DNA of 64,000 nucleotides, taken from the IMG/VR virus record IMGVR_UViG_3300045988_142422; one strand, given 5' to 3'. The position numbers and the translations under genes were made by a program. Shown piece by piece: positions 8,225 through 36,805 of the stretch. The notes below the pieces were generated by a model that worked only from the letters and a program-made list of their open reading frames with translations, was not told the DNA's origin and did no database searches. Origin of the DNA: a virus (taxonomy: Duplodnaviria; Heunggongvirae; Uroviricota; Caudoviricetes). How positions within the stretch are numbered: the first letter of the stretch is position 1; every line of letters starts with the position of its first letter.

Positions 8225-8476
8225 ATGCTAGGCAGCCTGATGACAAAGCTAAAAGTTGCTTTGATTACGCTGGCTGCCGTTCTTTTCGTTCTTGTCGGCG
8301 CTTACACGATGGGCGGGAATGCGGCGCGACGAGCAATGGAAGAGAAGGCAAAACAGGAAGACAGAAAACGACTTCAAAACACAGTGAAAGTGGTGAATGA
8401 GACGAGCAGTAAAATACGTCAGAAAGATGCTTCTGCCGTTCATCGTGAGTTGTATGATAAGTGGGTGCGTCATTAA
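8225..8476 (+). CDS. Rz-like inner-membrane spanin (i-spanin)
   Basis: N-terminal TM segment VALITLAAVLFVLVGAY followed by charged coiled-coil region; overlaps an embedded lipoprotein ORF in another frame. Confidence 0.6.
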   Translation: MLGSLMTKLKVALITLAAVLFVLVGAYTMGGNAARRAMEEKAKQEDRKRLQNTVKVVNETSSKIRQKDASAVHRELYDKWVRH

Positions 8477-8612
8477 ACCACAAACAGCCAGCGTGTTGTT
8501 CTGCGATGGGGCTGAGCCTATCTATATCAGCAATAATGATGTAATGACTGAAGAAACCGAACGCCAAATCCTTTTTCACAATACGATGGGAGAGAGGGTT
8601 TGTGGTTGGTGA
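8397..8612 (+). CDS. Rz1-like outer-membrane lipoprotein spanin (o-spanin), overlapping Rz in a different frame
   Basis: Basic n-region then hydrophobic stretch and lipobox-like ISGC (MRRAVKYVRKMLLPFIVSCMISGC); starts inside the 8225 ORF and extends past it, the classic overlapped spanin architecture. Confidence 0.6.
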   Translation: MRRAVKYVRKMLLPFIVSCMISGCVIKPQTASVLFCDGAEPIYISNNDVMTEETERQILFHNTMGERVCGW

Positions 8613-8644: not shown

Positions 8645-9166
8645 TTATTCTTCGAACAATTTTTCGATAGATTTTGTAGGATAGAACAAAGAACGCTCGT
8701 TGTTACCAACCAGCTGGATAAAGCCTAAACTTTTATAAAACGCCTTGGCTTTGTCATTTAACGCCTCAACGAAAAGTCCATGAATGCCTACAGCAAGAGA
8801 TGCATTGTACACAACGCGCATTGCATGTGTTACAAGCATTGAGCCAAATCCTTGACCTTGAAGGGACTTGTCCAAAGCCAGCCTACCCAAAGTAACACTT
8901 GGAACATTCCGATAAGGAACCTTCTTTTGTTTGCTTCTTGAAGGTAAGGACTCCTTTTCAAAACAACTACCTGACAAAGTGTAATATCCTAACACTTTTG
9001 GCCTTTCTTCTTGAGTGCAAAGCACATAAGCACGAAGAATTTTTCCCTCATGCTGCCTTTTTAAGTGGTTGGCTAAAAAGGCGTTTAGTGACTCTTCGCC
9101 GCAATCAAAACCGTTTAGATCATAATCTTTCTCTCCAGAGAAAATCTCTATCGTTGTATTGCTCAC
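8645..9166 (-). CDS. GNAT-family acetyltransferase toxin (TacT/AtaT-like)
   Basis: 173 aa; acetyl-CoA motif LQGQGFGSML; directly downstream of a DUF1778-like antitoxin ORF on same strand. Confidence 0.7.
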   Translation of the reverse strand: MSNTTIEIFSGEKDYDLNGFDCGEESLNAFLANHLKRQHEGKILRAYVLCTQEERPKVLGYYTLSGSCFEKESLPSRSKQKKVPYRNVPSVTLGRLALDKSLQGQGFGSMLVTHAMRVVYNASLAVGIHGLFVEALNDKAKAFYKSLGFIQLVGNNERSLFYPTKSIEKLFEE

Positions 9167-9173
9167 GAGTAAA

Positions 9174-9443
9174 CTACTCCATGCTTTTCAGACGATCAGC
9201 AGCTCGTTTCAGCTTGTCGTTCGGTGCCGGAGGATTGCTTATAGCGTCCATAACCAGATTCCAGGATTCTTCATTCAGAACTAGTCTACGGTGTTGCTCT
9301 ATAACTTTCACGGCACGTTCAGATGCACTGCTAACCATAAACTGAGTAATGCTCTGGTTAGACATTGCGGCAGCTTCCTCGATGATGCTTTTATCGTCAT
9401 CGGTTAATCTCAAATCGATGCGCTGCTTTTTTAGTGCTGACAT
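9174..9443 (-). CDS. DUF1778/RHH-type antitoxin (TacA-like) partner of GNAT toxin
   Basis: About 90 aa from ATG preceded by AGGAGGA (track ORF starts further upstream); sequence MSALKKQRIDLRLTDDDKSIIEEAA...SITQFMV matches DUF1778 antitoxins from memory; 7 bp from toxin start. Confidence 0.7.
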   Translation of the reverse strand: MSALKKQRIDLRLTDDDKSIIEEAAAMSNQSITQFMVSSASERAVKVIEQHRRLVLNEESWNLVMDAISNPPAPNDKLKRAADRLKSME

Positions 9444-9713
9444 GTATTCCTCCTGATGGCCGTGATGTAGGAAGGCCATCAATCTCCTCTGTTCAAACTG
9501 AGTTTTCGACTCAAAAATTACTTTAAAAGGCTATAGCCCATTACGTGTGCATTATCAAATTGTGTACGGCATATCACCGTACTTGTAATATAGAGGTCAT
9601 TGTTACTTTTTTCAACAGACAAATACAAGCTATGATTGCCAATTGTTAATCACAACCTACCATTTAACCTTTACACCGCAGCCGTAGGCATTTAGGCTAT
9701 ATCACATATAAGA

Positions 9714-9726
9714 AAACAAGTTGTTT
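9714..9726. promoter_or_regulatory. Palindromic motif A copy (AAACAAGTTGTTT) upstream of parA
   Basis: Perfect 6+1+6 inverted repeat, 36 nt upstream of parA ATG. Confidence 0.4.
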
Positions 9727-9761
9727 CAGACGATAATTATATACGCAAAGGGAACTCTCCA

Positions 9762-10430
9762 ATGACCAAGATCTTTGTGGTTGGCGGCACAAAGGGCGGG
9801 CCTGGCAAATCCACCGTTGCCCAGCAAATTGCCGTTTGCCTGAAAGTCAAAAAGAAGAAGAAGGTTTATATTACCGATATAGATATTCAGCGCACGACAA
9901 CGAGCTGGTGTGAAGACCGTCGACAGAACGAAGACCTTGAGCTGATTCCTTTTGCATACGTTCAGGATGACATCATTAAGCACCTAAAATCGCTTCAGGG
10001 TAGAGCTGAGTTTGTAGTGGTAGATGCTGGTGGCTTCGACTCCGAAATTCAGCGACAAGCGATGCTGATGGCTGACGTTATCATTATCCCGCTGCGTCCT
10101 AAGCGTCGTGATTTGAAATCTTTACGTGACATCGATCCTATTATCGACAATGTTCGCAATGTAAACGATAAAGTGAAGGTCCGCGCGGTCATGAACCAGT
10201 GCCCGGCTTTGCCATCACAAGTGTCTCGCATTCTGGCGGCTAAAGAGATTGTTGAGACGTTTGGAATCGAGTCTGCGCCAGTCAATCTGTATAACCGCAA
10301 CGTCTATGATGATGCGGAAGAGTCTGGTCGTTCTATCTTTGAAATGACCGGTAGCGAGCGCGACAAAAAGGCGGAAGCCGAGTTTGAAGAATTTGTAGAT
10401 TATCTGTTGAGTCTGGAGGAAGAAGAATAA
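9762..10430 (+). CDS. parA: ParA-family partition ATPase
   Basis: Deviant Walker A GGTKGGPGKST near N-terminus, about 220 aa, followed by small partner gene with ATGA-type overlap. Confidence 0.8.
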   Translation: MTKIFVVGGTKGGPGKSTVAQQIAVCLKVKKKKKVYITDIDIQRTTTSWCEDRRQNEDLELIPFAYVQDDIIKHLKSLQGRAEFVVVDAGGFDSEIQRQAMLMADVIIIPLRPKRRDLKSLRDIDPIIDNVRNVNDKVKVRAVMNQCPALPSQVSRILAAKEIVETFGIESAPVNLYNRNVYDDAEESGRSIFEMTGSERDKKAEAEFEEFVDYLLSLEEEE

Positions 10431-19563: not shown

Positions 19564-19638
19564 GATGGTGTAGCTCAGCGGTAGAGCAGTTGGCTGTTAA
19601 CCAACTGGTCGGTGGTTCGAATCCACCCACCATCGCCA
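19564..19638 (+). tRNA. tRNA-Asn (anticodon GTT)
   Basis: Cloverleaf by eye: acceptor GATGGTG/CACCATC, D-arm GCTC/GAGC, anticodon loop CTGTTAA, T-loop GGTTCGAATCC, 3' GCCA. Confidence 0.85.
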
Positions 19639-19640
19639 AT

Positions 19641-19716
19641 GCCGGTTTAGCTCAGTTGGTAGAGCGCCTGCCTTGTAAGCAGGATGTCAGCGGTTCGAGT
19701 CCGTTAACCGGCACCA
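19641..19716 (+). tRNA. tRNA-Thr (anticodon TGT)
   Basis: Acceptor GCCGGTT/AACCGGC, anticodon loop CTTGTAA, T-loop TTCGAGT, 3' ACCA; 2 nt after tRNA-Asn. Confidence 0.85.
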
Positions 19717-19786
19717 ATACAACGATAAGATCATTACGGTTAATCGTCGTTCATGTGCACAATGACTGGTCGAAAGGTAGTGATCT

Positions 19787-19938
19787 TACCGTTGTGGTGG
19801 ATTCGCAGACTGATGCGATAGCTTTCTTGGATGTTAGGGAAATGCGGCCGCAAATCTTCCCTTTCGCGAGCGGTGATCGTCCGTAGTCCTAATTGGCTGC
19901 ACCGTATGCCGGAGATTCAGTACCGGCCACCACAACGG
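19787..19938. other. Long-range inverted repeat (12 bp CCGTTGTGGTGG / CCACCACAACGG) enclosing about 126 nt
   Basis: Arms 19787-19800 and 19927-19938; second arm ends 2 nt before tRNA-Ser. Confidence 0.5.
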
Positions 19939-19940
19939 CC

Positions 19941-20027
19941 GGAGAGTAGGGAGCATGGTGCTCAAGCGGTCTTGAAAACCGTCCCATTGCGCAAGCGATG
20001 ATGGTTCGATTCCATTACTCTCCGCCA
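19941..20027 (+). tRNA. tRNA-Ser (anticodon TGA), long variable arm
   Basis: Acceptor GGAGAGT/ACTCTCC, anticodon loop CTTGAAA, long variable arm, T-loop GGTTCGATTCC, 3' GCCA; D-arm atypical. Confidence 0.7.
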
Positions 20028-27232: not shown

Positions 27233-27436
27233 GTGCGTAAAGGATGTTTCGGCTCTCTTATCGCTGCTTCTGAAACTGGCAAGGCTTGTCTGGGGTGTCC
27301 AGACAAGCCCGATTGTCACCAATCAGCAAAAGAAGTTGCGATTTCGATGTATGGGAAGTTCGTAGGCTTCCCCAATGACAAAATCAAAAAAACCAGAAAG
27401 GTAAAAACACATGAAGGCACTGATGGTTCGAACTGA
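27233..27436 (+). CDS. Small Cys-rich protein (possible zinc ribbon)
   Basis: GTG start; 67 aa; CLGCPDKPDC; overlaps dnaE start region. Confidence 0.3.
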   Translation: MRKGCFGSLIAASETGKACLGCPDKPDCHQSAKEVAISMYGKFVGFPNDKIKKTRKVKTHEGTDGSN

Positions 27437-30400
27437 CTTCTCACTTGGGGAGTCGGCTCTAAAAGCAGAAAACGCGGTGAAGATTGCCAGAGAAGCTGGC
27501 TACACCGCTGTAATTTCAGCAGATAGCATGAATATTGCGAGCGTTATTCCACTACAACGTGCCGCTGGTGACGACATGGCGATTATTTGTGGTGTGAAAC
27601 TAAACATTGTTGATGATCCCACATACGAGCACCGGGCTAAACTTGCTAAAGAATCTATGAGATGTATGGAATCATTAGAGCGGGGACGTAACTACTCGTT
27701 TACCGCTCTAATTAAAAATGAGCAAGGATATCGCGACATCTGCGAACTAATGACGGCGGCCAACACACGAGAACAGTTCTACTTTGTACCGCGTCTCTCG
27801 CTCGAACAGTTGGTTTCTACATATGCCAAAGGCAACATCATCCTGCTTACTTCCGACATCGGTAGCGTGTTCCAACGCAACGATTTTGCAAAAATCATAA
27901 GCACACTGATTACAGCGGGTGGAAAAGACAACTTCTATAGTGTGGTTTATCCGCACCCTACCCCATTCTACGACCAGATTAACGTCCGGGCGATGAAAGT
28001 CGCCAGCGCATTGAAAATAGAGCCAGTGGCGTTCTATCCCGCTTATTACGAATCGATCGACGATGCAGACATTAAAGACATTGCGCACATGGTTACGAAC
28101 AACATCAAAATCGACCAGCCGCATCGTCTGCGTATCCCCCACCAGCGAGATAACGCCGTCAATGGTCGCCGCCATCTCCTTGAGGCGCTTAAAGCCTTCT
28201 CCGTTCGCATGGATGTGCCGGTAACAGCTGCAATGGCCTCAACAACGCAGGATACCATTATCGATTCCTGCACATGGCGCTGGCATGAATTGCCACCAGC
28301 ACTGCCCAAGATGGCAGACGACGAACCTGCAACGCTGATGAAACTGGCTGTTGCAGGGCTGCGTAAACGTCTTACCACAAAAGAGTTTGGATACACACCG
28401 CCTGCTTCTGAGAACAGGGTTTATGTTGAGCGGCTAAAGTACGAAATGGACACGCTGACTCGCCTGGGATTCTGTGGTTACTTCCTGATGGTGCGCGATC
28501 TGATGAATCATAGTCGTGAAACTGGCATTCCCGTTGGGCCTGGTCGTGGTTCCTCTGCCGGTTCTCTGGTGGCGTGGTGCATAGGCATAACCAACGTCGA
28601 CCCAATCCGTCACGGTCTTCTGTTTGAGCGTTTCATCAACCCTGAGCGTCTCGACTTGCCGGATGCGGACTTGGACTTCAGCCAGGCACGTCGCCATGAG
28701 GTGATCGAGTATCTGAATGAACGCTACGGCGAAGATTACGTTGCGGGTATTCCGAACTTCACCTACCTGGGCGCCGCTTCTGCGCTGCGAGACACTGCGC
28801 GTATTTACGGTGTCGACGCTGCGGATATGGCGGTATCCAAAGAGTTCAAGAATCTGGAAGACGATAGCCTGTCTCTGGAAGAGCTGCGCGAGCAACTGGC
28901 CAGCCTGGACAAATACGCCACGAAAAACCCGGAAGCGTTCAAAGCGGCGTGTAAGCTGCAAAGCCTGATGCGTGGTTTTGGTCGTCACGCTGCGGGGATG
29001 ATCGTCGCTGGCGTTCCACTGGTAGAGCGCACGCCCGTCGAGCTGCGTGGCAACGCTCGCTGTATTGCGTTCGATAAACGTTACTGCGAGGCGATGGGGC
29101 TGATTAAGCTGGACGTTCTCGGTCTGGCAACGCTCGATCTGCTGGATAGCGCGAAACGCTACATCAAAGAGAGTACCGGGGAAGACATCAATCTCGATGC
29201 TATTCCACTGGACGATCGTAAGGTTCTGGATGGGTTCGCTGCAGGGTACACGCAGGGCGTATTCCAGCTGGAGTCCGGCCCCATGCGCAAGCTGCTTAAA
29301 GATTTAGGTGGTGGAATTGAGCCAATGAGCTTTAAAACGGTCGTCGCTACAACTGCGCTCTTCCGGCCGGGGCCAATTCAATCAGGAATGTTGGATGACT
29401 ATGTTTCTGTCGCCAAAGGCTTTATGACGCCGGAATCATTACACCCCGTTCTTGATGAACTTACCGCGGAAACAAATGGCGTGATTCTCTATCAGGAACA
29501 GACGATGAACGCGACTCGATTGCTTGCCGGCTTCACAATGGCTGAAGCTGACGCTGTGCGTTCCGCAATCGGTAAGAAGAACATGGAAAAAATGAAGAGC
29601 ATGGGCGAGAAGTTCATCGTTCAGGCTCAAGCTGGCTGGATAGACGTTGAGCTGGAAGATGGCACTACACAGCGCATTCACCGTGCGGAACATTTTAAAT
29701 GCGAAGACGGAACTCTGAAAACTGTCGAAGAGGCACTTGAGCACGGCGCAAAACTACCTATAAACGCAGTACGCGTTACAGCGTCACATCCAGGGCTATC
29801 AGAGATGAAAGCGAAGGAGATCTGGACCGCATTTGAGAAAAACGGAGCCTATCAGTTCAATAAATCACACTCCGTTGCTTATTCTTTAATCAGTTATCAG
29901 TCTATGTGGCTAAAGACGCACTACCCTGCTGAGTTCTTCGCAGCTGCGCTCACCATTCTGGGCGAGGATAAGCATCAGGGGCTGGTGAAGGATGCGCTGA
30001 CCTATGGCATTCGCGTATTGCCACCAGACGTTAATGTGTCATCTAACCGAATTGAGATCCGCACACTCGAAGACGGCAGTCAGGCACTGTATGCGCCATT
30101 CTCTGCTGTGAAAGGCTGTTCTGAAAATGGTTGTCAGGCAATTATGCGTGCGCGTGAGAAAGTTGGTGGCAAATTCGAGTCAGTGGCACAATTCGATGAA
30201 GCGGTCGAGAAGCGTGCATGTAACAGTCGTGTACGCGAGTCGCTTCATAAAGTAGGGGCTTTTGCGTCAATTGAGCCAGGCAGTCTGCCAGCAACTGATC
30301 CTGAACGACTGCGCGACCAGGCTGAGCTGATGGGCAATCTCATCATTGACGCTGTTAAAGCATCACGTCCGTTCGAAATGAATCCTAAGCGTTCTGCCGA

Positions 30401-30929
30401 AATCAACGTACTCATGACACGTATGGCGGCTGAAATGGGCTTGGGTGAGGAGTTGATACGCCCGACTATTGGTATTAAACCCAAAATCATGATCATTCTG
30501 GACAATGCGAACGGCAATGACGCTCGTACCGGCTACTTCATGGAGAACGGATACGACGACTTTAAGGCAAAACTACTGACAGTTGGAGATCTGCGCATGG
30601 GCGATCTTTATGTCACGGGTGTTTGTAAGAAGGTTAAGGACAAAGAGAAAGACTATACCAAAGACGAGATAGGCCAGTTCACAGACTTTATGCGGGAAGA
30701 AATTAATCTTGTACGACCAACCTACATTTTGACGTGTGGTAGTCGTTCAACCGCACTATTTAACAATAAGAGTAAACCATCAGATCTGATTGGTCGTAAG
30801 GAGTACTTCCCAGAGCTTGATGCAACCGTCTTCTACGGATTTAACCCGAATATCCTGTACTTCCGACCGGAAGAAGGAGAGCGACTGGAGGCCATTCTGG
30901 CTGATATCGCGGAGACAATAAATAAGTAA
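27411..30929 (+). CDS. dnaE: DNA polymerase III alpha-type (DnaE family) replicative polymerase
   Basis: 1172 aa; PHP-like N-terminus; palm motif [36 protein letters not shown]...PDADLDF. Confidence 0.85.
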   Translation: [1172 protein letters not shown]

Positions 30930-30935
30930 TAAAGA

Positions 30936-30960
30936 AAACCCGCCTGTTGGCGGGTTTATA
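30936..30960. terminator. Rho-independent terminator after dnaE
   Basis: AAACCCGCC-TGTT-GGCGGGTTT then TATAAAG. Confidence 0.8.
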
Positions 30961-31232
30961 AAGAATTATGGCGCTTGTTGAGGAAGTCACTCCTCTTACG
31001 CACTTTGTTTTGCCATGCCGGCAGTTAGCTTCTGCCTTTGACTATTCATGCGGCAACCCCGCATTTCGCCACAATGGGCAATTCACTTTTATGGAATAAA
31101 CTGGCCGTTGTGTCGATTTAATTAGCATGGCCTTACCATGCTAATTTATTCAACTTGTACAATCCTACAAATCTATCCACTCAGGCTTACACCGTCTTCG
31201 TTATTGTAGAAATGAGGATCATCAGCGTTGAA

Positions 31233-31448
31233 TCAGCTTAGAGCAACGACATTTGCTGCTGCTGGGCCTTTAGCCCCATTCTCGATAGAGAATTCGACCT
31301 GCTGGCCTTCTTCCAAAGTGCGGAAATTATTACTCTGAATTGCCGAAAAATGTACAAAAACATCTTTACTGCCATCAGCAGGAGAAATAAAGCCAAAGCC
31401 TTTATCAGAGTTAAACCATTTTACTAAACCAGTCATTTTATTAGACAT
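31233..31448 (-). CDS. cspA: Cold-shock protein (CspA family)
   Basis: [38 protein letters not shown]... near-identical in pattern to enterobacterial CspA; track ORF extended upstream of true start. Confidence 0.95.
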
Positions 31449-31777
31449 AGATATTACCTTCTTAATTTTGTGAGCCACATAGTGCGGCGAGAATTTGATC
31501 TGTATAGATTGGGACTTACTTAGGCACTTAAGGAGGAGACTCACGAAGAAGGGAAATCAGAAGATAACACTGAACTGAGACTGCTTTACTAAAACTGCTT
31601 ACATAAGGTCTGTCTTGCAAACCAACGATGCTATTAACGCATACCCCTTCTTTTCATGCAACCTTTATTTTTCAAAGATAACTAATTTTTGTCACCATTG
31701 GTTTAGTAAACGTTAACGAACCAGACGATGCCAGACACCTTTACAGAGAACAGATGCCCGCCAATTGGCGGGCATCA

Positions 31778-32341
31778 TTATGCGCATTTCGCAATATCTT
31801 TGCGGCGTTTAATCAGTTTCTCCGCAATTTGCTCTATTTCGTTGAAATCTTTCGAGACGCTGTTTCGAAGCGCCAGATTCCATTTACTCAAAGTTCGGGC
31901 ATTTTGGACAATTTGATCGCCCTCTTTAAGTCGTCCGTTATTCATGAGCCATTCAGCCACATCAGCCCAATCCCAGAGAGGAGACTGGCCTTTTATGCGT
32001 TGTACAGGGCAAGGGAAGTCGCCGCTTCCGCGCTTACCGTCTTTGAGCAACGCCACTGCCTGGCGAGACAGGTCTGTCAGTTCCGCGATATCGCTTAAGC
32101 CCACAAGAGCCGAGTCGACGGATTCAACAATTGCACCGATACCGGCTGATTCAATATTGTCGACCGCAGATGCGATAGCTGCATCAAGTGATTGTGCTTC
32201 GCGGTCAAATTCTACATAGACGGAGTTTCCATATGCGCAAATTAGCGCATCGTCACAGCCGTTTTGGTACAGCGCGTCTTCCAGTCCTTCCGTCTCATAC
32301 GATACGCCTGAGAGCGTCAGAGTGAAGTTATAAAGCGCCAT
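31778..32341 (-). CDS. Two-domain protein with C-terminal AlpA-like HTH
   Basis: Start at ATG preceded by AAGGAAA; C-terminal IAELTDLSRQAVALLKDGKRG...FPCPVQRI...WDWADVAEWL resembles AlpA/excisionase-type HTH; N-terminal domain unassigned. Confidence 0.5.
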   Translation of the reverse strand: MALYNFTLTLSGVSYETEGLEDALYQNGCDDALICAYGNSVYVEFDREAQSLDAAIASAVDNIESAGIGAIVESVDSALVGLSDIAELTDLSRQAVALLKDGKRGSGDFPCPVQRIKGQSPLWDWADVAEWLMNNGRLKEGDQIVQNARTLSKWNLALRNSVSKDFNEIEQIAEKLIKRRKDIAKCA

Positions 32342-32401
32342 AGTTTTCCTTTGAAGATAGTTGGACAGTTTCTGCAAAAGGCGGCTAATGCCGCCTTGAA
32401 A

Positions 32402-32626
32402 TCATTTACAACGATCAACCATTCGTTTGATCTGTTTGGCATGGTTTTCGGGATTACCCGGAGTCGACCATACGCTCATTTGGTGAGTTTTGTGTTCACC
32501 TTCTGGATTACCGCATCGCAGTCTGCAAAAACAATGTGCAGCACCACCAGCTGCTACCCAGATCCAGCCTTTACTTAATGCATAGTCAATGGCTGCTTGA
32601 ATATGCTTATTCGGATGTTGCTTCAT
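32402..32626 (-). CDS. Small Cys/His-containing protein (74 aa), possible toxin-like partner
   Basis: Immediately upstream of the AlpA-HTH gene on same strand; weak HicA-like pattern GW...H.F...P...K.I.K; unverified. Confidence 0.35.
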   Translation of the reverse strand: MKQHPNKHIQAAIDYALSKGWIWVAAGGAAHCFCRLRCGNPEGEHKTHQMSVWSTPGNPENHAKQIKRMVDRCK

Positions 32627-32880
32627 TCGCCTCCGATAATAGTATTCTATTCACAGTGTTGACATCTGTCAACGGCGACTGAATTTCATCCGTTCATGCC
32701 ACCCCCCCATCCATCTCATGTATGTGACCTAAAGATGGTCAGCACAGCTTACCAAAATAAGACAACTAATTATCTTCGGTGATCTCAATATTTTCCCCTG
32801 AACAAAGTTGACATGACGCCATAAACCCGTTCTCTGTTTGATATAATTGATACAGATTTTATAAGTAGGAACCTATTAGA

Positions 32881-33312
32881 GTGAACACTGATATTTTTTC
32901 TAAAATCATGGCCGATCTGGAGTTCGACCGCGACAACCTTGAGGAAGTATGGCGTAAACAGCCACGGCTTTTAATGGAGTATGGGTCAAAACTAGCGCAG
33001 GCAGATCGAGATGTCGCAGAGGCAAAACTTAACCTTGAAGCTGTTGAAGCAAAGCTATACGACACAGAGCGTAAGAACTTGAGTATGAACGGCATTAAGT
33101 TCAACGAGTCTGTACTGGACGCTAAGGTTAAAACAAACCCACAGTATCTGTCTAAACGGCAGAAGTTGGATGAAGCACGGCACATCGCAGACATATACAA
33201 ACATGCTGTCGCCGCCTTTTCGCATCGCCGAGACATGATCGTTCAGGCGTCAAAGATGGCCATCGTTGAATTAGAGCGATTAGGCTCTGAACGCTTTATT
33301 ACTCCCCGTTGA
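32881..33312 (+). CDS. Hypothetical protein (candidate recombination mediator by position)
   Basis: 143 aa coiled-coil-rich ORF (GTG start) immediately upstream of gp32-like SSB; no motif verified. Confidence 0.4.
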   Translation: MNTDIFSKIMADLEFDRDNLEEVWRKQPRLLMEYGSKLAQADRDVAEAKLNLEAVEAKLYDTERKNLSMNGIKFNESVLDAKVKTNPQYLSKRQKLDEARHIADIYKHAVAAFSHRRDMIVQASKMAIVELERLGSERFITPR

Positions 33313-33429: not shown

Positions 33430-34458
33430 ATGTCTAAGACATTACTTGATTTGCTTAACAAAACTCGTGAAGACATTGCCGCCAAACGTGGCAACAACGT
33501 TGATCTGACTCGCTTAAAAGACGGCGTCAACTATATCCGCATCTTCCCGAATAAAGACGACCCAAACGGTAAGTTCTTCCAGACTTTCGGTATGCACTAC
33601 GTTAAGTATCAGAACGAGGAAGGTAAAGAAGCAACCAACGCTTATATTTGTGAGCAACATACTCACGGTCGCGCTTGTCAGCTATGCGAAATGGTTATGG
33701 AAGGTCGCGCTCGTCACAAGGGTAACAAAGCAATGGAAGAACGCATCGGTCAAATGCGTGCCACTCCTCGCTACCTGGTCAACGGCATTCTTTCTGCTCG
33801 TGAGGATTTCGCAGATGCTGAGAAATGCCAGTTAATCGAGCTGCCGTCTACTGTATTCGATGATATCTGCAAAGCAATCACCGAAGACATCGCTGATGAT
33901 ATCGGCAATCCACTGAGCAAAGAGGAAGGCTACGCATTCCTGATTAAACGTACTGGCTCTGGTCGCGATACCAAATATGACGTCTCGCCTAAGCGTAAAG
34001 TCTACAAAGGCGATATCGAAGATAAATTCTGGAACACCCAGCATGATCTGATCGCATACGCAAATCAGGCTGATGAAACTCGTCTTCTGTCGACAGTTCG
34101 CACTATGGGTCGTCTGATTGGCATCGCTGCACCAACTGCCGCAGCATCTGCACCAGCAATTTCCTCAACCGCGAAAACATCGGCTGCGGCACTACCTGGA
34201 TTTGGCTCTGTCACTGGTCATACGGAGGGTGCGACTGCTGTAGCAACCGCTCACACCCCAGCTTCTGAACCAACCAGTCTGGTTGATGAAGAAATCCTCC
34301 GTGCCGTTGAAACTGAATTTAAACCAGAAGCAAGTTCCGCTGCCGTTGCCGTATCAGTCAAAGAGTCTGAAGCAGTCGCAGCGACATCTGTAGCAGCCGC
34401 ATCTGCGACGGAAGATGAAGGTCTGGATGACCTACTGAGAGAGCTGGACTCTCTGTAA
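33430..34458 (+). CDS. Single-stranded DNA-binding protein, T4 gp32-like
   Basis: Zinc-binding pattern CEQHTHGRACQLC; N-terminal IRIFPNKDD; acidic C-terminal tail DEGLDDLLRELDSL. Confidence 0.7.
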   Translation: MSKTLLDLLNKTREDIAAKRGNNVDLTRLKDGVNYIRIFPNKDDPNGKFFQTFGMHYVKYQNEEGKEATNAYICEQHTHGRACQLCEMVMEGRARHKGNKAMEERIGQMRATPRYLVNGILSAREDFADAEKCQLIELPSTVFDDICKAITEDIADDIGNPLSKEEGYAFLIKRTGSGRDTKYDVSPKRKVYKGDIEDKFWNTQHDLIAYANQADETRLLSTVRTMGRLIGIAAPTAAASAPAISSTAKTSAAALPGFGSVTGHTEGATAVATAHTPASEPTSLVDEEILRAVETEFKPEASSAAVAVSVKESEAVAATSVAAASATEDEGLDDLLRELDSL

Positions 34459-34474
34459 TCCCATTACGTGACCA

Positions 34475-34504
34475 GTAAGGCGTCTACGGACGCCTTACTT
34501 TTTG
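34475..34504 (+). terminator. Rho-independent terminator after SSB gene
   Basis: GTAAGGCGTC-TACG-GACGCCTTAC then TTTTT; lies inside the track ORF 34468..35463, arguing for a later start. Confidence 0.75.
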
Positions 34505-34518
34505 GAAGGAATGTACCG

Positions 34519-35463
34519 GTGAATTATCTCTTCGTAGATGGCAATAGCCTGGGTTATTACCACCAACAATCTGACAAATTGCACAACGGCGAAATGGAAG
34601 TACAGGCTGCTTTCGGCTTTGTTAAGAACGTCCGTCGTTATGCCTCCATCCTCCATGCCCGACCTATGATTCTTTGGGATGGATTTAGTGACAAGCGTCG
34701 CGACTTTTACCCGGACTACAAAGCAAATCGCGACGACGATCCTGATATGAAAAAGATGAAGGAAGGCTTTGCTATCCAGAAGCCATACATCCTCAAAATG
34801 ATGACCGCGCTTGGAGTTACCCAACTCATTGCAAAAGATGCAGAAGCGGATGATCTGGCCGGGCTGCTGGTATCCCGCATGGCACCGCAGCCAACCGTTG
34901 AACACATCTATCTGTTAACAGGCGATAGCGACTGGCTTCAGTTAGTTCGTGAAAACGTAAGCTGGGTAAGCCTGCGTGAAGACGCCAAAAACAAGCAGGT
35001 TAATTTTGAGCAATTTGCGGAGCTGACAGGATTCGCCACGCCTCGCGCATTTTTGGAAGCAAAAGCATTACAAGGCGATAACTCGGACAACATTAGCGGT
35101 GTTGGTGGCATTGGTGCTGGCGGTGCGAAAGAGCTGCTGCATGAATGGGGAAGTGTCGCAACGATGGTACGCGGCATCAACGACGGCTCAATCGTGGTTA
35201 ATAAAGGGCGTCATAAGACCGCCTTCAACAAACTAGCGAAGAATGCCTTCAACGAGAAAACAGGCTGTCGAATGCTCGAAGCGTTCAAGAGAAACATCAC
35301 GCTAATGAACCTGATTGAGACGAAGTTTCCGCCTACCGAAATCGAAACAATCAAAGGCAATCGTGACGTGAAAGCATTCGAGCAACTGTGCTACGAGCTG
35401 AATTTCCGTTCGTTCCTTGAAGACCTTGAAGTGTTTGTTCTTCCATTCGAAAGGTATTGCTAA
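34519..35463 (+). CDS. 5'-3' exonuclease / flap endonuclease (T4 RNase H-like)
   Basis: GTG start after GGAAGG; N-terminus VNYLFVDGNSLGYY typical of 5' nuclease family. Confidence 0.7.
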   Translation: MNYLFVDGNSLGYYHQQSDKLHNGEMEVQAAFGFVKNVRRYASILHARPMILWDGFSDKRRDFYPDYKANRDDDPDMKKMKEGFAIQKPYILKMMTALGVTQLIAKDAEADDLAGLLVSRMAPQPTVEHIYLLTGDSDWLQLVRENVSWVSLREDAKNKQVNFEQFAELTGFATPRAFLEAKALQGDNSDNISGVGGIGAGGAKELLHEWGSVATMVRGINDGSIVVNKGRHKTAFNKLAKNAFNEKTGCRMLEAFKRNITLMNLIETKFPPTEIETIKGNRDVKAFEQLCYELNFRSFLEDLEVFVLPFERYC

Positions 35464-35731: not shown

Positions 35732-36805
35732 ATGGCAAAAGGAAAATCCGCACTGGCACTTGCTCTGAAAAAGAAAATCGGTAGCAACGACGAAATTCAG
35801 AAAGTAACTCATTGGATTGATACAGGCTTTCCACCGTTAAACAAAGCTATTTCTGGTCGTTACGATGGCGGCTTCCCATGTGGTCGTATCGTCGAAGTAT
35901 TCGGTCCTCCAAGTGCAGGGAAAACGTTCCTTGCAACAGCAGCGATGATCTCCGCTCAAAAACAAGATGGTCTGGCGGTATTCCTCGATCATGAAAACAG
36001 TTTTGACGTTGGCCTGGCTGTCGCCAATGGCCTGAACGCAGATGAGGATGACGGTCAGTGGGTATACAAGCAGCCAGATACCTTCGAAGACTCTGTAGAG
36101 TTGATCGGCACAATACTTAAATTGGTTCGTGATGAAGAGCTTATCCCCGAATCAGCACCTATCTGTATCGTGGCTGACTCTCTTGCGTCTATGGTTCCGA
36201 ACTCCAAAGCCGAGAAGTTCGAAAAGATGGCTGAAGGCACTGCCAAAGACAAAGATCAGCTAAACATGAACGACAATACGGCACTGGCTCGTGCGACGAG
36301 TGCGAACTTCCCTACTCTGGCTTTGTGGGCACGCAAATACAACGCCTGCATCATCTTCTTGAATCAGGTTCGCACAAAAATCGGTGTAATGTTTGGCGAC
36401 CCTACTACGTCGCCAGGTGGAGATTCACCGAAGTTCTACGCTTCTGTACGTATCCGTCTTGGTGCATCGGTGATGAAGGATGGTAAAGAGAAGATCGGCC
36501 AGGACGTAGGCGCAGAATGCATCAAAAACAAAGTTGCACCACCGTATGGCAAATGCACCTGGAAATTCTACTTCGATCCTACTCGTGGCCTCGACGTTAT
36601 CGAATCGCTCGTCGAGTACATGCTGGAAGAAGGATACCTGCCAAAGAACGCCAGCGGGCGAGTTGAAATTGGTGACAAGAAATACACCAAATCGCAGATC
36701 GTTGAGATGTATCGGGAGAAGCCACTGGCTGAAATCATTGCGGCTTTACAGGCAATCGACGACCGAAGAGCAAAAGACAACCCCACCGAGTCAGTAGAAG
36801 AGTAA
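35732..36805 (+). CDS. RecA/UvsX-like recombinase
   Basis: Walker A FGPPSAGKTFLA, 357 aa. Confidence 0.75.
   Translation: MAKGKSALALALKKKIGSNDEIQKVTHWIDTGFPPLNKAISGRYDGGFPCGRIVEVFGPPSAGKTFLATAAMISAQKQDGLAVFLDHENSFDVGLAVANGLNADEDDGQWVYKQPDTFEDSVELIGTILKLVRDEELIPESAPICIVADSLASMVPNSKAEKFEKMAEGTAKDKDQLNMNDNTALARATSANFPTLALWARKYNACIIFLNQVRTKIGVMFGDPTTSPGGDSPKFYASVRIRLGASVMKDGKEKIGQDVGAECIKNKVAPPYGKCTWKFYFDPTRGLDVIESLVEYMLEEGYLPKNASGRVEIGDKKYTKSQIVEMYREKPLAEIIAALQAIDDRRAKDNPTESVEE

Follow-up and report, generated by a model that had tools for sequence, protein, structure and literature searches.

The window (the whole stretch of viral DNA analysed here, 64,000 nt in length) carries three minus-strand genes between the plus-strand dnaE gene and a plus-strand block of recombination genes. 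This arrangement had been noted in the original prediction, and all three ORFs were confirmed. They are referred to below as csp and as genes A and B. The genes of the region are as follows.

27411..30929, plus strand: dnaE, flanking the minus-strand genes on one side
31233..31448 (including stop; ATG at 31448), minus strand: csp, encoding a CspA-family cold-shock protein of 70 aa, nearest to CspG/CspB
31778..32341, minus strand: gene B (putative antitoxin/autorepressor), 187 aa plus stop
32402..32626, minus strand: gene A (putative toxin), 74 aa plus stop, with a ribosome binding site (GGAGG) at 32630..32634
32881..33312, plus strand: UvsY-like gene, the first gene of the other flanking block
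33430..34458, plus strand: gp32-like SSB gene
34468..35463, plus strand: 5′–3′ exonuclease gene
35732..36805, plus strand: RecA gene

The sequence comes from an SSU5-like phage-plasmid. Over the studied region it shows 99.7% identity with Escherichia phage Cyrano (OV696614.1, 108 kb), which is also known as pLF82, an SSU5-like phage-plasmid carried by E. coli LF82 (PMC9928086; pLF82 record NC_011917.1). The same site in Enterobacter phage-plasmids holds the A-B pair, with another gene in place of csp. Neither the pair nor the csp gene is mentioned in the phage-plasmid surveys found in the literature.

The three minus-strand genes had been grouped as a single island, a view that did not hold. 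Only 14 of 57 viral relatives have csp next to the A-B pair, and csp is equipped with a promoter and a leader separate from those of the pair; csp and A-B are therefore better treated as two independent cassettes. A functional link between csp and the pair was considered and rejected on the same count. In the explanation that we favour on balance for the locus as a whole, the region comprises two independent accessory cassettes placed at a variable site of an SSU5-like phage-plasmid.

The csp cassette

The identification of the first gene as encoding a CspA cold-shock protein was correct. Its product scores 115 bits against the Pfam CSD model (cut-off 27) and passes the NCBIfam cut-offs for both CspG (146.6 bits, cut-off 144) and CspA (140.2 bits, cut-off 130). 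Identity to the E. coli paralogues is 83% for CspG, 82% for CspB and 73% for CspA, and the RNP1 (KGFGFI) and RNP2 (VFVHF) motifs are intact and invariant in the alignment with these three proteins. Two regulatory features accompany the gene.

31208..31626, minus strand: cspA-type mRNA thermoregulator (RF01766), consisting of a 5′ leader of about 180 nt that includes a cold-box stem, and of the stretch matching the coding portion of the Rfam model
31633..31661, minus strand: putative csp promoter, read from the sequence, with a −35 box TTGCAT (31656..31661), a 17-nt spacer and an extended −10 box TGcGTTAAT (hexamer at 31633..31638)

The match to RF01766 covers the full length of the model (positions 1–428), with 185.7 bits (E = 2.4e-49) where the gathering score is 78; the Rfam terminator stem found no match at the cassette. 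An AT-rich, UP-like tract lies upstream of the putative promoter. The promoter blocks and the cold-box stem have counterparts at aligned positions upstream of E. coli cspA, cspB and cspG, and by analogy with the cspA promoter we take the blocks upstream of the leader to be promoter elements. The phage gene shares with these E. coli genes the promoter blocks, the cold box, the long 5′ leader and 73–83% of its protein sequence, and differs from them in its plasmid location and in the unmatched terminator stem.

At the DNA level the cassette shows only 73–76% identity to any chromosomal E. coli csp gene, indicating that it is a distinct paralogue. Copies at least 99% identical to it are plasmid-borne in 90 of 5,426 complete E. 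coli genomes, and PGAP names the gene cspG there; the plasmids carrying it are roughly 95–155 kb in size, most of them about 100–115 kb. The gene is absent from the Cyrano annotation.

Phage-borne cspA paralogues are already known: CspB and CspI are expressed morons of Tritos, a prophage of strain LF82 (PMC9928086), and the PHROG collection includes a family of phage cold-shock proteins, PHROG 729. Judged from its sequence, the csp gene is an ordinary, self-contained and presumably cold-inducible moron, and as such the cassette is routine. A cspG/cspB-type RNA-chaperone gene would have been captured whole, along with a cspA-type promoter, cold box and mRNA thermosensor. Since the complete regulatory cassette is retained, the product would be expected mainly after a temperature downshift.

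The A-B operon and its promoter palindrome

Genes A and B lie on the same strand, 57 nt apart, and are associated with the following signals.

31753..31776, minus strand: terminator-like hairpin right after the B stop codon, with a 10-bp stem that includes 8 G-C pairs
32378..32397, minus strand: G+C-rich hairpin between A and B, AAGGCGGC-ATTA-GCCGCCTT, followed by TTGCAG
32644..32672, minus strand: sigma-70 promoter of the A-B operon, TTGACA, 17-nt spacer, TAGAAT (11 of 12 consensus positions)
32658..32673, no strand assigned: putative operator, a 16-bp palindrome GTTGACA-NN-TGTCAAC over the −35 box

From these predicted signals, A and B are read as one operon with a strong promoter and terminator. 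The description of A as a 74-aa, Cys/His-containing protein directly upstream of B stood up in both length and gene order, and Cys and His residues are near-invariant among its relatives. The length of 188 aa given for B had counted the stop codon and is corrected to 187 aa. In an LF82 lysogen grown in LB, A is transcribed at 30 times and B at 14 times the prophage background (PMC9928086), so the pair is expressed in a Crohn's-disease-associated E. coli lysogen. This transcription, together with the many relatives of both proteins, indicates that A and B are real genes and not chance ORFs.

The hairpin between the two genes has counterparts elsewhere. A perfect stem of at least 6 bp is found in 22 of 35 related loci with an A-B gap of at least 40 nt, compared with 8% of shuffled sequences, and the stem sequences vary between lineages. 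Folding of the whole A-B spacer was no better than that of shuffled sequence (z −0.95), the local hairpin alone standing out. T-runs are rare among the spacer hairpins, which may therefore act as transcription attenuators or lend stability to the mRNA upstream of them. Either role would agree with the LF82 data, in which A transcript is twice as abundant as B transcript. In a toxin-antitoxin operon it would be unusual for toxin mRNA to outnumber antitoxin mRNA.

The 16-bp palindrome overlapping the −35 box occurs once in the 64-kb window, where a pattern search gives 0.03 occurrences as the chance expectation. Of 80 species loci, 69 carry its core, GTTGAC-N4-GTCAAC with at most one mismatch, at a distance of 27–69 nt upstream of the A gene, and several of the 11 loci lacking it reflect wrong start codons assigned to A. 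The background is low, with three matches in 857 kb of flanking DNA of the relatives. Conservation of the palindrome spans Enterobacterales to Acinetobacter, Neisseria and Alphaproteobacteria, part of it reflecting the promoter itself, as the palindrome contains the −35 consensus. Symmetric variants occur as well, GTTTAC-N4-GTAAAC in six loci and GTGGAC-N4-GTCCAC in one; in these both arms are altered and the symmetry is kept, as expected for a site that is read by a dimer. The single occurrence in the window and the near-absence from the 857 kb of flanking DNA argue for self-regulation rather than control of a regulon. We infer that the palindrome is an autoregulatory operator at the A-B promoter and that B is the protein that would bind it.

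Proteins A and B and their distribution

The A family comprises 711 clusters at 50% identity (E up to 1e-3), and relatives occur in 506 of 185,579 species genomes. The AlphaFold model of A (pLDDT 88.7) is a helix, three strands and a helix (alpha-beta-beta-beta-alpha), with a short helix in the loop between strands 2 and 3. Near-invariant residues among 85 members are H4, W21, H31, C38, T55, P56 and C73; H31, at the start of strand 2, is present in 82 of the 85 and H62 in 70. Position 48 is Cys in 69 members and His in nine, a swap that behaves as a metal ligand would. Judging from the predicted secondary structure, C38, C/H48 and C73 would lie at one end of the protein (the hairpin of strands 2 and 3, and helix 2) and may make up a structural zinc site. 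An active site of RNase type could be built at the other end from H31 and H62, perhaps together with H4 and K7.

Searches of Pfam and NCBIfam gave no match for either A or B. Sequence-profile searches of the PDB, using narrow and broad alignments of A and an alignment of B, returned chance-level matches only, and a Foldseek search of the A model against the PDB found nothing at E < 0.9. In PHROGs, A belongs to phrog_5923, for which the database label is "unknown function", and B to phrog_2620 ("excisionase and transcriptional regulator"; 2.4e-105).

The B family contains at least 273 clusters at 90% identity. The predicted model of B (pLDDT 86.9) has three parts.

Residues 1–75: ferredoxin-like N-domain
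Residues about 78–135: winged helix-turn-helix (HTH) of the AlpA/excisionase type
Residues 143–186: C-terminal helical hairpin

An AlpA/excisionase-type HTH had been proposed at the C-terminus of B. The type agrees with the winged helix of the model; the position does not, the domain being central (residues ~78–135) and followed by the helical hairpin, so that it is not at the extreme C-terminus. The hairpin is absent from forms of about 150 aa in Pasteurellaceae, Neisseria and Acinetobacter. The HTH resembles those of AlpA and the small terminases and has a winged-helix fold of the MerR/excisionase type, and for the ferredoxin-like N-domain the likeness is to the RAM/ACT domains with which Lrp/AsnC regulators bind ligands. 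The Pfam model Phage_AlpA (PF05930) does not match the B protein of the window, and among B relatives it matches 4 of 31, weakly (best E 0.025). In three loci B is cut to its N-domain (87–91 aa, no HTH); these loci lack the palindrome and have kept A, which fits a division of labour in which the N-domain would neutralise A and the HTH would read the palindrome.

The two genes are closely linked. A search with A retrieved 90 loci, among them 80 from different species; every one of the 90 has a B homologue directly downstream on the same strand, and none has A without B. In about a quarter of them the genes overlap by 4 or 1 nt, typical of translational coupling. The 57 IMG/VR viral loci found through B include 49 with an intact A and 8 without A; with one locus in which A has an in-frame stop, a missing or inactivated A accompanies B in 9 of 57. 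Where A is missing, B is full-length in three loci and N-terminally truncated in five, with no replacement ORF for A. Loss or inactivation of A beside B spans at least five lineages. This asymmetry is suggestive rather than conclusive, because the two sets are different collections and sampling could contribute to it.

The pair is found in varied settings. In E. coli it is always plasmid-borne, being present in 110 of 5,426 complete genomes (2%), and it is also carried on plasmids of Yersinia pestis, Enterobacter, Citrobacter and Klebsiella, mostly of about 100–115 kb and non-mobilizable. Other copies lie beside YefM/YoeB in a P2-like prophage, beside a RelE/MqsA-like pair in a P4-like island, and in a small integrase/IS island, and bare two-gene inserts occur in the chromosomes of Providencia and Sodalis. 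With about 500 species in all, A-B is thus a widespread module, including on enterobacterial and Y. pestis plasmids of about 100 kb.

Interpretation of the A-B pair

The pair belongs to a catalogued family. PADLOC identifies A as PDC-M06A (1.2e-19), with matches to five further A models, and the adjacent B, which follows A, as PDC-M06B (1.3e-32). PDC-M06 is listed among 145 phage defence candidates that were recognised by their embedding in BREX, DISARM or type I RM loci (bioRxiv 10.1101/2024.01.29.577857). The genes of the window are of the same family as the PDC-M06 pair of Payne et al., and differ in setting, lying at an accessory site of a phage-plasmid and not embedded in a defence system. 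Literature searches with the name PDC-M06 and with the RefSeq protein accessions of the pair found nothing.

The original prediction had suggested a toxin-antitoxin-like pair. The gene order in 90 of 90 loci, the promoter palindrome, the orphan-B asymmetry and the PDC-M06 match all speak for this, and from them we infer the roles of toxin and antitoxin. Several general features of type II systems are present: two small, adjacent and co-transcribed genes, one of them with an HTH, a palindrome at the promoter, and an asymmetry in which only the putative antitoxin gene is found alone. That A-B is an autoregulated two-gene module with B as its DNA-binding partner is very probable. That it is a true toxin-antitoxin pair is a reading that leans towards the probable. 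That A is a HicA-type RNase is doubtful.

The explanation favoured on balance is a type II toxin-antitoxin-like operon that regulates itself, has the toxin gene in first place and would stabilise the plasmid, exclude phages, or both. A dimer of B would bind GTTGAC-N4-GTCAAC over the −35 box through its winged HTH and repress the operon, and its ferredoxin-like N-domain would bind and neutralise A. Protein A would be a small growth inhibitor, probably zinc-stabilised, with a HicA-like topology and possibly an RNase. Loss or titration of B, as when the plasmid is lost or an infecting phage imposes shut-off, would leave A free to arrest the cell, and this arrest could stabilise the phage-plasmid, abort infection by a competing phage, or both.

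A regulatory switch without a toxin would account for some of the same observations. B would then act as a transcription factor of AlpA/excisionase type or as a recombination directionality factor, with A serving as a small zinc-binding co-factor or as an anti-repressor, and the two would control other phage-plasmid genes. The name of the PHROG family matched by B, the likeness of its HTH to those of AlpA and the small terminases, and the likeness of its N-domain to the RAM/ACT domains of Lrp/AsnC regulators are in keeping with such a role. However, the palindrome, found in the window only at the pair's own promoter and almost absent from the flanking DNA of relatives, points to self-regulation, many loci have no integrase or recombinase nearby, and B persists where A has been lost or disrupted by a nonsense codon, which fits an A gene that is costly to carry. 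A switch of this kind is therefore unlikely.

The GenBank record of Cyrano labels the pair HicA/HicB, a label transferred via BLASTP or Pfam annotation, which would make A an mRNA interferase of the HicA type and B its HicB antitoxin. The label does not hold up in the sequence comparisons. The Pfam model HicA_toxin (PF07927) matches neither A (E up to 1) nor any of 85 relatives (E up to 0.1), and no HicA was returned by the PDB profile searches with the A alignments. With hhalign, 19 columns of A could be paired with an E. coli-type HicA (75.8% probability), in a register that is not topologically equivalent and with a HicA profile that is itself too narrow to find other HicA structures. A has, in addition, a likely Cys/His metal site that sets it apart from HicA. 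The model of A has a HicA-like topology, yet A is not a demonstrable HicA, because the Pfam, PDB-profile, Foldseek and hhalign results give no equivalent match. Nor does B correspond to HicB: its N-domain is predicted to be ferredoxin-like, whereas that of HicB has a partial RNase H-like fold (beta-beta-beta-alpha-beta), and where a HicB would have an RHH or Xre domain for DNA binding, B has an AlpA/excisionase-type winged helix. With both the sequence tests and the HicB fold test failed, a genuine HicAB system is improbable, and the catalogued family appears to have been mislabelled.

The least probable alternative is an Acr-Aca-type operon, akin to the anti-defence regulatory pair also raised in the original prediction, in which A would be a small phage effector (e.g., an inhibitor of host defence) and B a mere HTH repressor damping a strong promoter; the genes upstream of Aca regulators are of many kinds, whereas the partner of B is of the A family in 90 of 90 loci, the pair also forms a stand-alone chromosomal cassette without phage context, it is catalogued on the defence side from BREX, DISARM and type I RM loci, and the large, conserved extra N-domain of B stays beside A even when the HTH is lost.

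A more specific version of the toxin-antitoxin reading can be offered only tentatively. PDC-M06 might represent a new toxin-antitoxin or abortive-infection family, in which the toxin is a zinc-stabilised mini-nuclease unrelated in sequence to HicA, and the antitoxin joins an excisionase-type winged helix to an ACT/ferredoxin-like N-domain that might double as a sensor of a phage or metabolic signal. It would be used by phage-plasmids of the SSU5/pHCM2/pMT1 group for persistence and for the exclusion of rival phages, and the hairpin between A and B would set the unusual excess of toxin mRNA. If A is toxic, the pair would add a new variant of toxin fold and a new antitoxin architecture, and would help to explain the maintenance of SSU5-type phage-plasmids in clinical Enterobacteriaceae. 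For a test of the PADLOC candidate, the present analysis offers a defined 16-bp putative operator, candidate catalytic and metal-binding residues, and natural forms of B that consist of the N-domain alone.

The phd-doc genes of the phage-plasmid P1 are likewise a small, autoregulated two-gene module on a plasmid-maintained phage. Their proteins are unrelated to A and B, and the gene order is the opposite, the antitoxin gene of phd-doc being first. Phage-plasmids have been reported to carry toxin-antitoxin systems (PMC7969092), and Cyrano itself has modules of the KacT type and of the RelE/ParE type (PMC9928086).

The dnaE-to-uvsY gap and the csp gene

The interval between dnaE and the uvsY-like gene looks like a variable accessory site, since in the Enterobacter hormaechei phage-plasmids (L002-L004) the csp slot is filled differently and dnaE is itself interrupted. 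In these three loci the slot (about 8930..10056) holds genes for a 214-aa protein, for which no Pfam match was found, and a DUF7740 protein, and the interruption of dnaE is an HNH/NUMOD4 gene. The features of the csp part of the window are:

31233..31448, minus strand, csp (about 8334..8549 in locus L001)
31118..31151, hairpin between dnaE and csp, TTAATTAGCATGG..CCATGCTAATT
30936..30957, hairpin between dnaE and csp, G+C-rich stem and subsequent T-run

Although csp is labelled cspG by PGAP on related E. coli plasmids, the GenBank record of Cyrano (OV696614.1) carries no annotation for it, and for this reason the LF82 moron study did not cover its expression. The two hairpins may be terminators for the transcripts that converge from dnaE and csp. 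For the Rfam cspA terminator stem itself there was no match.

Natural variants of the A-B pair

In three related loci, two from Cardiobacteriaceae MAGs (L054, L071) and one from a Planctomycetaceae MAG (L083), B is reduced to its ferredoxin-like N-domain (87-91 aa) and has no HTH; the promoter palindrome is missing as well, and A is retained. Viral relatives in which B is kept and A has a nonsense codon or is missing are the IMG/VR loci L111, L131, L135, L136 and L142-L146; the B of the last five is N-terminally truncated as well. The gap between the two genes contains one further feature:

32378..32397, minus strand, G+C-rich hairpin between A and B

A hairpin at the same position recurs in related loci (L011-L089), with sequences that differ by lineage, and may act in transcription attenuation or mRNA stabilisation.

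Other phage-plasmid cargo and comparison with Cyrano

Two further features of the window lie outside the dnaE-to-uvsY gap:

19564..20027, plus strand, three-tRNA cluster (Asn-GTT, Thr-TGT, Ser-TGA)
35732..36805, plus strand, RecA gene (357 aa, no intein)

Only Asn-GTT and Thr-TGT of the three clustered tRNA genes were recovered by Rfam at the gathering threshold. Besides A-B, Cyrano carries at least two further modules of the toxin-antitoxin type, with expression during lysogeny (PMC9928086): CYRAN_26/27, a KacT-type acetyltransferase with an antitoxin, and CYRAN_29, a RelE/ParE-type toxin. The RecA CDS of Cyrano is 780 aa, compared with the intein-free 357 aa of the window, which is thus a close relative of Cyrano/pLF82 and not identical to it in sequence. 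The RecA of Enterobacter relatives contains an intein with a LAGLIDADG domain.
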